From positions 137,082,001-137,146,000 of the forward strand of contig OX597816.1 of NCBI GenBank assembly GCA_951406725.2: a stretch of DNA of 64,000 nucleotides, given 5' to 3'. The translations under genes were made by a program, and so were the position numbers. The DNA is from Octopus vulgaris. Lineage: Eukaryota. The notes beneath the pieces were generated by a model. It searched no databases. It was not told where the DNA came from and worked only from the letters and a program-made list of their open reading frames with translations. This document shows positions 23,338-58,005 of this stretch, piece after piece. Within the stretch, counting starts at the first letter, position 1. The number at the start of each line of letters is the position of its first letter.

Positions 23338-24825
23338 ATGGTATCCAGAGCATTTTATATTATTTTATTAATTACATTAACGGTGAAGAGTGAAAATAAT
23401 ACGGTTGGAAATGTTATGAAAACGATTGTGTCGGAATACAGTAATTCGACGTCAACTGATAACAATTTCTCTCCGTGGTTTTTTGAACAAATGATAAAAC
23501 TCTTAAACTGCGGTCCTTTACCGAAATTAAACAACAGTCAAATACAATATACTTTGAAATGGGAAGAGGAAAAAATACACCTGCAACAAAAGTGCAACCG
23601 CAATTTTGAAGCAAGCGTAGAGAATATGGCCGATATTATTTGTTGGAATGGTAAATGGATGTATGAAGATAAAAAATGTAAGTTAATAACTTGCCCGATT
23701 TTTCCTAAACCTGCAAACAGTTTCATGATAAATGTTGCATACACATATAACTCTGCTATTCGCTTTTCCTGCCTGTCTGGTTATATTTTACGAGGAAACA
23801 ATTCAATACGTTGTCAAGAAAATAAACAGTGGTCGTCTCTCCCACCAGTTTGTGAAACTATTAAATGTCTCCCACTGCATCCACCCAAACATGGCAATGT
23901 AAACAATACAAATGGAGTTGAAATTAACGAAACAATTCATTTCACTTGCTTAAAACCTTATAGTCTGAAAGGTGAATCTGTATTAACTTGTCTTCAAGAC
24001 GGTAGCTGGAATTTTCCGACACCTGTTTGCACTTTGAAATGTGTTGTACCTGAAATTGCTGGCAGAGTTGTGACTATTTCTGAAGGTACAATTTTAAAAC
24101 CAAGAACCTTAATCAATCAAGGAGAGAAAGTGTTATATTCTTGCAAACGATCCTTCATTCCTGTCGCATTTGGAGTCGTTCAATGCTTTTCAGGTAAATG
24201 GTATCCAGACATACAGTGCAGAAAATCGTGTAAAATTGAGAAACGAAACGGATTGAATTTTATTTTGTCACATAATTTTTCAGTTATTGAATATAGCTGT
24301 TCTGCTGAAGAAACATTGTTGGGATATTCTAAAAGAACCTGTTTAGAGAATGGAACGTGGAGTGGAAAACTTCCACGGTGTGTAAAGAGCTGTCAATTGT
24401 TACCCGTGTTTGGCATGTATAGCTACCGAAATTCAGACACTTTGCAATATCTTCCGTTTGGCAGCACAGTCTTAGAAAACACGAATGTTATTTATTCGTG
24501 TGAACTTCCTAATATGAATAACTCCAACGATAGTGTGATATGTCAAAATGGTGTATTGACCCCCAAACCACGCTGTTCACATAGAAATATTCATCTGATG
24601 TATTCCAGAGTCATGTTTACCCATAAATCGTCAGACTATTATGTTTGTGAAACAAAATACACTTGCGAATTTTTTGGTTACAGACAGAAATCATGCACTA
24701 GTAGTAAGTGTGCATTTTTTAGTAACGATCTATGTGCCAACATAGACTTTAACAATGCAACATCAGAAATATATATTAGTGCAAAGACTACTAATTGTTG
24801 TGCTATGCAATGTTATGATGATTAA
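23338..24825 (+). CDS. Intronless secreted multi-Sushi/CCP protein (signal peptide + 6 CCP + Cys-rich C-terminal domain), paralogue 1, 495 aa
   Basis: Uninterrupted ORF. Hydrophobic N-terminus MVSRAFYIILLITLTVKS. Six C..P..C..G....C...W....C modules (e.g. CPIFPKPAN..FSCLSGYILRGNNSIRCQENKQWSSLPPVC). No TM segment. TATAAAA 107 nt upstream. Confidence 0.9.
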   Translation: MVSRAFYIILLITLTVKSENNTVGNVMKTIVSEYSNSTSTDNNFSPWFFEQMIKLLNCGPLPKLNNSQIQYTLKWEEEKIHLQQKCNRNFEASVENMADIICWNGKWMYEDKKCKLITCPIFPKPANSFMINVAYTYNSAIRFSCLSGYILRGNNSIRCQENKQWSSLPPVCETIKCLPLHPPKHGNVNNTNGVEINETIHFTCLKPYSLKGESVLTCLQDGSWNFPTPVCTLKCVVPEIAGRVVTISEGTILKPRTLINQGEKVLYSCKRSFIPVAFGVVQCFSGKWYPDIQCRKSCKIEKRNGLNFILSHNFSVIEYSCSAEETLLGYSKRTCLENGTWSGKLPRCVKSCQLLPVFGMYSYRNSDTLQYLPFGSTVLENTNVIYSCELPNMNNSNDSVICQNGVLTPKPRCSHRNIHLMYSRVMFTHKSSDYYVCETKYTCEFFGYRQKSCTSSKCAFFSNDLCANIDFNNATSEIYISAKTTNCCAMQCYDD

Positions 24826-26002
24826 TGTACATAAAATTTATGTTTGTTCTTGCTGCAATCTTTACATTCAGTTATGACATCGCATAACATTCAGTTATGA
24901 CAACGTAATGGAAGTCGTTGTACTTACGCATATGTGCTTGTTCCTGACATTTATCGTAATATATATAATTGGAAACAGACGTAAAATTTAAACTCGCCTT
25001 ATAAACCGGCCTTTCAGTCAAAATGTACACATCAGTAAACTGAGAAGACATTTTTAACAACTTAAAATTGCATTCGTTGTGGCACTCAAGTATCACGGGG
25101 ATCTTTGATACTAATTTCTATTTATCACGTCCCAGGAGGGTATGTTTTCAAGAGAAAGTATTTGAACTTGACCGTCAATTCCAAGATCAGTGTAGTATAA
25201 TTCATATGAGTTTTATATTTGTTATTGGCGCTCTCTTTGCCACTTCCCCTCTCTCATTGCTGAGTGCTTTCATGTGTTTACACAAACAGATTATTATAAT
25301 ATTATTTGGCCCCGTGCCGACAAAAATGACGGCTAACTGGGTAATTTTTCAGAGTAACACCTGCACGATTTTCGCAAAGAAAAAAAAAAAAAACTCGGAT
25401 TTTTTTGCTTGGAATCAAGTACACTGTCCTCCTAATATGCTGCAAATCCCTTATTTTGGTTCGAGAATAGTTTGTTTAATAAAATGGAGATTATGATTTT
25501 GAAAAGAAAAAAATTCCTTTTCCAGTATTTGATTTCTTTATTTTTAAAATTTCTTTTGTTTTTATTTAACTTTCCTTCAAAAGATTTTCTGCTTCATGTA
25601 CTAAACAAGCAAGATTGTGATTGAGAAATAAAAATCCAAATTTTAATATTTTGATTTTATTGTTTCCTTCTCTAATTTTGATAGTTTTTTTTTCTTTCTG
25701 ACTATTGTTTCGGAAACGTTTCCCAGACTCACTCCTTCAAACAGATTTAAACGTAAAATATTACGGTTATGCGAAAATAGAATTTTTACAAATTCAGCAG
25801 CTTCATCGGATTTGGTGTATTTTAAAATATAGCTGCTCACAAATACATGCGTGCGCACATGTAATCGTGTGTGTGTGTGCACGAGTGTGTACATACATAC
25901 ATACATACATACATACATACATACATACATATATATATATATATATATATATATATATATATATATATATATATATATATATATATATATATATATATAT
26001 AT

Positions 26003-56526: not shown

Positions 56527-58005
56527 TTAATCATCATTGCACTGCATAATACAACAACGATCAACGGTGTCTTTAACATATATTTCTGATGTTGCATTGT
56601 TAAAGCCTATATTAGCACAAATAAAATCCTGACAGTTTGCCCAATCGCATGCTTTCTGATTGTAACCAAAAAAATTGCAAGAATATTTTGTGTCACAAAT
56701 ATTATATAACCACCATCCATCGTTGAAAGTAAGGTTGGAACCTATCAGCTCGATATCTCTATATGGACAGCGTGGTTTTGGGGTCAATACGCCATTATGA
56801 CACATCACAAACTTGTTGGAGTTCTTCACGTAAGGAAATTGACATGAATACGTAATATTCGTGTTTTCTGGAACCGTGCTACCAAATGGAAGATATTGCA
56901 AAGTGTCTGAATTTCGGTAGCTATATATGTTAGACTTGTATAACAATTGACAGTTCTTTACACACCGTGGAAGTTTTCCACTCCACGTTCCATTTTCTAA
57001 ACATGTCCTTTTAGAATCTCCCAACAACGTTTCTTCAGCAGAACAGCTATATTCAATAACTGAAAAATTATGTGACAAAATATAATTTAATCCATGTAGT
57101 TTCTCAATTTTGCACGTTTTTCTGCAAAGTATGTCTGGATACCATTTACTTGAAAAGCATTGAACGACTCCAAATGCGAGAGGAATGAAGGATCGTTTGC
57201 ACGAATATAACACTTTCTCTCCTTGATTGATTAAGGTTCTTGGTTTTAAAATTGTACCTTCAGAAATAGTCACCACACTGCCAGCAATTTCAGGTACAAC
57301 ACATTTCAAAATGCAGACAGGTGCCGGAAAGCTCCAGCTACCGCCTTGAAGACAAGTTAATACAGCTTCACCTTTCAGACTATAAGGTCTAAAGCAACTG
57401 AAAGAAATTGTTTCGTTCACTTTAATTTCATTTATATTGTTTACATTGCCATGTTTGGGTGGATGCAGTGGGAGACATTTAACAATTTCACAGATTGGTG
57501 GTAGAGACGACCACTGTTTATTTTCTTGACAACGTATTGAATTGTTTCCTCGCAAAATATAATCAGAAAGGCAGTAAAAGCGAATAACAGAGTTATATGT
57601 GTATGCAATATTTATCATGAAACTGTGTGCAGGTTTAGGAAAAATGGGGCAAGTTATTAACTTACATTTTCTATCTTCATAAATCCATTTACCATTCCAA
57701 CAAATAATATCGGCTGTATTCTCTACGCTTGCTTCAAAATAGCGGTTGCACTTTTGTTGCAGGTGTATTTTTTCCTCTTCCCATTTCAAAGTATATTGAA
57801 TTCGACTGTTGTTTAATTTCGGTAACGGACCGCAGTTTAGGATTTTTATCATTTGTTCAAGAAACCACGGAGTATAGTTTTTGCAGGTTGACGTCGAATT
57901 ACTGTATTCCGACACAATCTTTTTCATAACATTTGCAACTGTATTATTTTCACTCTTCACCGTGAATAAGATAAAGAAAAGGAAATAAAATGTATTGGAT
58001 ACCAT
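56527..58005 (-). CDS. Intronless secreted multi-Sushi/CCP protein, paralogue 3, 492 aa
   Basis: Uninterrupted ORF colinear with paralogue 1: signal peptide, six CCP modules, 8-Cys C-terminal domain ending CNDD. TATAAAA 108 nt upstream. Confidence 0.9.
   Translation of the reverse strand: MVSNTFYFLFFILFTVKSENNTVANVMKKIVSEYSNSTSTCKNYTPWFLEQMIKILNCGPLPKLNNSRIQYTLKWEEEKIHLQQKCNRYFEASVENTADIICWNGKWIYEDRKCKLITCPIFPKPAHSFMINIAYTYNSVIRFYCLSDYILRGNNSIRCQENKQWSSLPPICEIVKCLPLHPPKHGNVNNINEIKVNETISFSCFRPYSLKGEAVLTCLQGGSWSFPAPVCILKCVVPEIAGSVVTISEGTILKPRTLINQGEKVLYSCKRSFIPLAFGVVQCFSSKWYPDILCRKTCKIEKLHGLNYILSHNFSVIEYSCSAEETLLGDSKRTCLENGTWSGKLPRCVKNCQLLYKSNIYSYRNSDTLQYLPFGSTVPENTNITYSCQFPYVKNSNKFVMCHNGVLTPKPRCPYRDIELIGSNLTFNDGWWLYNICDTKYSCNFFGYNQKACDWANCQDFICANIGFNNATSEIYVKDTVDRCCIMQCNDD

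Follow-up and report, generated by a model that had tools for sequence, protein, structure and literature searches.

Sushi genes in the window

We have analyzed a window of 64,000 nucleotides of the Octopus vulgaris genome (GCA_951406725.2, contig OX597816.1, positions 137,082,001 to 137,146,000) that holds genes coding for chains of six Sushi modules, also called complement control protein (CCP) modules. The contig is designated C3 in this 2.8-Gb genome, and the other contigs with members of the family are C1 and C2. A scan from ATG to stop found two intact, uninterrupted Sushi open reading frames (ORFs) in the window, 77% identical to each other: copy A (23338..24825, plus strand, 495 aa) and copy B (56527..58005, minus strand, 492 aa), both single-exon and with the same architecture. 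Copy C (32168..33646, plus strand) is also full-length and carries two frameshifts, near 32311 and 32594; tBLASTn recovered it in three pieces and two frames, the first of which stops after 51 codons. The initial annotation had described three single-exon paralogues of ~1.48 kb, a description that holds for A and B and fails for the broken copy C. A model from Octopus sinensis similar to copy C (P0015) is open at both frameshift places but ends early in the C-terminal tip, and the frameshifts may be genuine or assembly errors.

In copy A a likely signal peptide (residues 1-18; by inspection, a basic residue followed by ~12 hydrophobic ones) and a helical N-terminal segment are followed by six Sushi modules (58-413) and a C-terminal tip (414-495). 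The tip (24577..24822, plus strand; 82 aa with 8 Cys) has a predicted scavenger receptor cysteine-rich (SRCR) fold and is under positive selection; the tip of copy B is at 56530-56766 on the minus strand. The six CCP modules and Cys-rich tail proposed initially were found as described: the six modules of copy A, each C-C-C-C, hold 24 Cys and the tail 8 more, and the full-length AlphaFold model (predicted local distance difference test, pLDDT, 75) starts with two helical stretches at the N-terminus and continues with six beta modules and a tail that is all beta. Pfam recognizes Sushi in the two intact ORFs (E 8e-30 and 5e-26), with just 4 and 3 stretches individually above cut-off. A transmembrane segment had been said to be missing, and hydropathy indeed gave no C-terminal hydrophobic anchor in the intact family proteins; the top internal 19-residue value, located within Sushi 4, was 1.08-1.76 across the 10 intact proteins. 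The proteins are likely to be secreted, and each has 9-17 N-glycosylation sequons.

The shared TATA promoter was also confirmed. Of 12 aligned copies, 10 have the GTATAAAAG box ~100 nt 5' of the ATG, and the three in the window are among them. Copy A has two TATAAAA boxes (23217..23237, plus strand), the second being the one conserved among copies; the others are at 32060 (plus) for copy C and 58107..58113 (minus) for copy B. The sole AATAAA in the 775 nt downstream of copy A, at 25478..25483 (plus), is a candidate polyadenylation signal. Contigs from four public runs over 23125-25330 showed no joint, and one of them spans 23219-25330 unbroken; this contig comes from a run of unrecorded type and is evidence of contiguity, not of transcription.

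Extent and distribution of the family

In the 384 kb scanned around the window, 12 gene-length copies are spread over 271 kb on both strands; nine of them are intact and three broken. There is also a 36-codon fragment. Local duplication is shown, and a family size of three was an undercount, since the cluster extends far past the window. One further intact copy, with 60% identity, is located on contig C1. This copy (L012) and an arrestin-domain gene share a strand, with the copy ~44 kb upstream of the gene's exons; P0021 (787 aa), a database model, joins them into one, probably by annotation error or read-through.

A distant paralogue was found on contig C2. It consists of a single 641-codon frame (P0030, L016:1027-2952) with 29-31% identity to the cluster genes, and codes for a long acidic N-terminal segment, six Sushi modules and, directly after the sixth and in the place of the 8-Cys tail of the cluster genes, a canonical SRCR domain (Pfam E 4e-10). 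Genes of the C2 type (P0030-P0032) were found as one copy each in the source genome, O. sinensis, O. bimaculoides and Argonauta. Their SRCR is more conserved than their own Sushi chain, with 90% identity to O. bimaculoides and 75% to Argonauta. In a tree of the stalk, as we call the Sushi chain (25 rows), the C2 type, represented by one gene per species, separates at 100/100. Argonauta carries both types, so the split predates the divergence of Octopus and Argonauta. On another contig, C15, three SRCR exons (L036, L037, L039) lie within ~45 kb on one strand with 34-39% identity to the C2 SRCR; they are an ordinary multi-exon SRCR gene or cluster.

Homologues of the family were detected in O. 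sinensis, O. bimaculoides and Argonauta hians, and intact orthologues are present in these three other octopod species. The family had been presented as a cephalopod one, which is too wide, as it was found in Octopus and Argonauta only. Outside octopods we obtained generic Sushi similarity only, in searches that could miss distant relatives, and no homologue turned up in squid, cuttlefish or Nautilus with searches that need shared words and a length window. Matches in a beetle and a clam were discarded as generic multi-Sushi proteins. The homologues are labelled in databases as factor H-like, P-selectin-like, SVEP1-like or CSMD3-like, automatic names that are at odds with the domain order. The initial annotation had not recognized the architecture as a named family, and we found no title or abstract describing it in a literature coverage that mostly excludes subscription journals.

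Exchange of the stalk and selection on the tip

Among the 10 intact genes the amino-acid identity falls along the protein, from 78-84% in Sushi 1-5 to 67% in Sushi 6 and 40% in the tip. The stalk shows clear traces of exchange between copies. Copies A and C are identical over 512 nt covering Sushi 3-5 (23877..24388, plus strand; nucleotides 540-1051 of the coding sequence), against ~81% over their first 100 nt, while the promoter and first 100 nt of copy C resemble copy B (94-97%). Another tract of 512 nt is common to two other copies. The recombination test gave a near-neighbour incompatibility of 0.236 versus 0.326, a difference reached in 0 of 2000 permutations, and omega in the stalk was 0.17-0.44. 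The stalk is shuffled and homogenized by gene conversion and is under purifying selection. Within the tip there was no recombination signal (1686 of 2000 permutations).

The tip behaves differently under codon site models. The comparison of M1a with M2a gave a likelihood ratio statistic of 21.7 (p 2e-5), with 32% of sites at omega 3.4, and that of M8a with M8 gave 19.4. Ten sites had a posterior above 0.9 (419, 423, 424, 433, 452, 455, 456, 461, 482 and 483). In Sushi 1-6 the statistic was not significant (0, 1.2, 0, 0, 3.9 and 0). The signal of the tip persisted when columns next to gaps were removed (25.0), when the set was cut to the 7 or the 5 closest copies (17.0 and 13.7) and in the two halves of the domain (7.9 and 10.9), and none of 37 neutral simulations nor of 37 neutral simulations with recombination reached 5.99. 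In two separate pairs of copies the 3' flanks are identical at 221/222 and 208/209 positions and Sushi 6 at 192/192 and 189/192, and yet the tips differ by 6 and 15 codons, all 21 non-synonymous and none synonymous (chance ~0.005), 14 of them by a single base. Between species, against the best matches in O. sinensis, we counted 28 differences in 485 positions of the tip, 18 in 2034 of the stalk and none in 110 of the C2 SRCR. This comparison comprises 6 of 8 pairs, those dropped being a repeat match to the same copy (5/81 and 6/356) and a model that ends early in the tip. Positive selection is confined to the tip.

Structure of the tip

Eleven tips of the family alone were used to build a structural model (pLDDT 77, predicted template modelling score 0.64), and we compared it by VIA with 48,161 solved chains. 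There were 22 matches with Z of at least 2, and the top 20 (Z 7.1-3.4) were SRCR-domain proteins, headed by enteropeptidase (Z 7.1, root-mean-square deviation 2.7, 78 of 82 residues aligned) and including TMPRSS2, TMPRSS13, hepsin, CD6, CD5, CD163, SCARA5, Pit54, factor I, LOXL2 and CD5L. The two remaining matches were unrelated (Z 2.2 and 2.0). SRCR is named in the titles of five of these rows; for the others we take the aligned ranges to be SRCR domains, just as we assume the identities of rows 7 and 20. Foldseek put the same SRCR proteins first.

One family fills the structural list, the whole tip aligns and the C2 paralogue independently agrees; on these grounds the predicted fold leads us to regard the tip as SRCR-derived. 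We do not call it a member of the SRCR family because it is short, the model has no helix and the Cys pattern is new. A canonical SRCR has 100-110 residues and 6 or 8 Cys at set positions (PMC3100851), and just the first two and the last Cys positions of the 8 in the tip align with those of the C2 SRCR. One copy is devoid of Cys 4 and 5 of the tip and another of Cys 3 and 7, a pairwise loss suggesting that Cys 4-5 and Cys 3-7 form disulfides. The tip profile, searched against 1.84 billion representatives, gave 6 matches, namely 3 Octopus members of the family and 3 repeat proteins; two of the latter (P0038, P0040) were rejected on reading. Weak sequence matches in the PDB to a viral MHC-like protein (E 0.07 and 0.8) and five scattered Pfam matches were considered due to chance, and the ESM Atlas gave no usable match for the tip.

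Intronless state and expression

The intact copies are open frames of 490-495 codons with no intron in the coding sequence. The initial annotation considered an intronless frame with several CCP modules atypical, and in this genome a single exon is indeed unusual: the remaining Sushi matches are found in frames of 72-109 aa, and the match to the arrestin-domain gene of contig C1 is split into nine pieces spread across 34 kb. A retroposed founder, as was then proposed, is plausible. What points to retroposition is solely the absence of introns, which the cluster type and the C2 type share. Searches of the own genome with copy A and P0030 found no intron-containing parent, with only the best candidates scored and with small exons able to escape. 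The hallmarks of retroposition (a poly-A remnant, a target-site duplication) would be lost by now, the event being older than the split of Octopus and Argonauta. Molluscan proteins combining Sushi and SRCR are a lead to a possible source class.

Regarding expression, the skin mucus proteome of O. vulgaris contains one high-confidence spectrum (q 1.9e-4) of a 13-residue peptide of the family (PMC10138644, Table S1). The peptide also matches three ORFs of 508, 505 and 286 aa among paralarval transcripts. It is preceded by Arg in copy A and not in copy B, and is not assignable to one gene. No family accession or peptide appeared in the covered portions of the ink supplement (PMC10142993) or of the posterior salivary gland supplement (PMC7693380), the latter being a weak negative. 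The product had been proposed to be immune, salivary/venom or reproductive; the scant tissue evidence favours skin mucus and paralarvae over venom or gametes.

Other features of the window

A duplicate of the promoter and 5' leader, with a TATA at 31138, occupies 31035..31238 (plus strand), with no coding sequence behind it. This orphan lies ~930 nt upstream of copy C, with an inverted-repeat element (31288-31658) in between, and the same arrangement is seen again ahead of the next copy past the window. The upstream flank of that copy, which starts just past the window, is 62733..64000 (plus strand), 99.3% identical to 28590-29857; this is a recent segmental duplication with an offset of ~34 kb. 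Broken ORFs for reverse transcriptase and endonuclease (2204-4679, 10758-17123 and 61590-62219), several of them nested, look on inspection like remnants of non-long-terminal-repeat retrotransposons. Self-inverted elements resembling miniature inverted-repeat transposable elements are found at 13652-14768, 18661-19204, 26003-26752 and 49419-49772, and a direct repeat of 337 nt at 13680/14043 is 99.7% identical. Within the cluster there is also a degenerate, telomere-like TAACCC array of ~275 nt (40239-40514). Finally, an Asn-rich low-complexity ORF of 245 aa (53841-54578, minus strand) lies 2 kb downstream of copy B.

Proposed function

A conserved, glycosylated stalk, one end domain under positive selection and many copies together argue that the end domain is a binding site facing changing or varied targets. 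MARCO's and DMBT1's SRCR domains bind bacteria by means of their first hairpin (PMC4491621, PMC3100851), and 4 of the 10 selected sites of the tip fall, by our alignment, within the segment corresponding to that hairpin. With this precedent and the mucus peptide, binding at the host-microbe interface of mucosal surfaces is the best reading of the family, and we consider that it has about an even chance of being correct. The secreted glycoprotein would use its six Sushi modules as a constant stalk holding out the shortened SRCR-fold tip, and the variable tip would be the ligand-binding end, attaching to microbes or to parasites on mucosal surfaces, skin mucus among them. Different copies would bind different targets, and the protein could serve for recognition, for agglutination or as a decoy. 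Since the canonical motifs are absent, its ligand, if any, would be a new one. The variable recognition family of the initial annotation gains real support from positive selection limited to the C-terminal domain and from the SRCR-like fold there. As for its history, an intronless gene with six Sushi modules and an SRCR would have duplicated before the split of Octopus and Argonauta; one duplicate, on contig C2, would have retained the conserved canonical SRCR, while the other remodelled it and expanded in tandem. The fuller proposal, that octopods have germline-encoded soluble variable receptors, secreted into mucus, with an intronless Sushi stalk swapped by conversion and a positively selected SRCR-fold tip that binds different microbes, is tentative, and we place it somewhat short of even.

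Several points weigh against host-microbe recognition by an SRCR-like tip. By sequence the tip does not look like an SRCR: Pfam detects the domain in 0 of 11 tips at E up to 10, a sequence search of the PDB with the tip gave no SRCR match, hhalign assigned a probability of 0.2% to the alignment of tip and SRCR with a profile score no better than shuffles, and no RGR or GRVEV motif is kept. With 79-82 aa it is 20-30 residues short, and the SRCR helix is absent from the model. The structural scores are middling, all Foldseek E-values being above 0.001 and the best VIA Z below 8. Regarding selection, the site models are our own implementation and not PAML (GY-type, F3x4, a tree per domain, 10 intact genes), the mean omega of the tip is just 0.7-1.3, and the clustered multi-base changes in the tips of one of the two pairs may reflect short conversion tracts rather than single selected mutations. 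Three of the 12 cluster copies are broken. The single mucus spectrum is common to 12 database entries and comes from scraped skin (PMC10138644). In addition, venom proteins and gamete proteins are just as typically under positive selection.

If the protein were instead a structural or adhesive glycoprotein of mucus, skin or egg coat, the Sushi chain would be the functional part and the tip would drift under weak constraint. The many sequons, the occurrence in mucus, a mean tip omega near 1, the two copies each without a pair of tip cysteines, and the Sushi domains of molluscan shell matrix proteins (PMC8257504) would fit, but neutrality is rejected by the site models, the simulations fail to reproduce the signal, the 21 to 0 ratio of non-synonymous to synonymous codons arises next to near-identical flanks, and cysteines lost in pairs are what is expected of a fold still constrained; we regard this explanation as rather unlikely. 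Rapid divergence of the tip between close species (28/485 versus 18/2034) would also be expected of a reproductive or chemical-recognition protein (sperm-egg, spermatophore or species cue) whose tip sets species or mate specificity, and the Sushi sperm protein Zp3r is among the weak generic matches. SRCR and Sushi domains both occur in gamete-recognition proteins. Full-length ORFs of the family in the paralarval transcriptome, a peptide in skin mucus, and the many diverse paralogues per genome, which suit many targets better than one partner, make such a role unlikely. A salivary or venom component with a tip tracking prey targets is less likely still: a small Cys-rich tip, positive selection, a tandem family and the CCP domains of some venom proteins (PMC5336659) speak for it, whereas none of the 12 and 6 homologues is named as a venom protein and the covered part of the posterior salivary gland supplement, a weak witness, has nothing of the family.

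In fold, the all-Sushi stalk is similar to factor H and to further regulators, C3 homologues exist in octopus (PMC4199593) and factor I is among the structural matches of the tip, all of which would suit the role implied by the automatic name factor H-like, a fluid-phase regulator of a complement-like system with a C3-binding Sushi chain and an accessory tip. Against this, the identity to regulators is ~20%, a level generic among Sushi chains, one would not predict for a self-regulator a dozen paralogues whose tip is positively selected, and the family was found only in octopods; we consider this role improbable to the same degree as the venom role. A captured viral complement-control gene, or decaying copies without function, could account for the lack of introns, the compact TATA promoter and the 3 of 12 broken copies, but is largely refuted already and has in our opinion very little probability. 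The viral matches are generic Sushi proteins of vertebrate viruses with 14-28% identity, no better than cellular ones, and the long ORFs in the 384 kb are, by inspection, family members or retrotransposon-like remnants. The low omega of the stalk and the intact orthologues in three other octopod species are against dead copies.

Recognition of microbes at mucosal surfaces, if confirmed, would mean a diversified recognition family in cephalopods and a new use of the SRCR fold. How cephalopods, with no antibodies and a bare mucous skin, discriminate microbes is an open question, and ten intact single-exon genes with 80-residue tips are a small, testable set with the conserved paralogue as a built-in control. 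The family may also exemplify an SRCR-like domain altered past sequence recognition. It corrects misleading database names; a paper on octopus mucus already cites one of them as 'factor H'. The design of constant stalk and variable tip and the signal of selection hold even if the role is in venom or reproduction.

Comparison with known systems

The closest known relative is the C2-type gene, a true paralogue with the same six-module order in a single exon. An ESM Atlas cluster of molluscan proteins, 'scavenger receptor cysteine-rich type 1 protein M130-like' (78 members, SRCR in 100% and Sushi in 56%), also joins Sushi to a C-terminal SRCR, a likeness that is a lead only (score 0.91, over part of the protein). 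In contrast to both, the tip of the cluster genes is shortened, has 8 Cys and escapes Pfam, and the genes are multi-copy and positively selected. Factor H and the regulators of complement activation (RCA) share with them the tandem Sushi chain; together with the bivalve 'P-selectin' genes they are where the automatic names of the octopus proteins come from. In the RCA group the chain is CCP-only, with about one exon per module, whereas the octopus genes have an extra SRCR-like tip and a single coding exon. Selectins, SVEP1 and CSMD differ in that the octopus proteins have no lectin, EGF, VWA, pentraxin, CUB or membrane segment, Sushi being the only Pfam domain above cut-off. The bivalve 'P-selectin' genes form tandem clusters in a mollusc as well (PMC9484242); the terms intron, exon and SRCR are absent from the main text of that paper.

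With DMBT1/gp-340, MARCO, CD5L and CD6 the family has in common a stalk whose far end carries a predicted SRCR fold, and a suggested mucosal location, but the octopus stalk is made of Sushi modules, not of collagen or SRCR repeats, and the variation is between paralogous genes. The sea urchin SpTransformer, snail FREPs and amphioxus VCBPs are analogues among the diversified immune families of invertebrates. Their domains are unrelated to those of the octopus genes, and the likeness lies in the clustered paralogues, the gene conversion and the combination of a conserved part with a variable part under selection. In its clustered paralogues and its conserved and positively selected parts, the octopus cluster resembles such diversified families.

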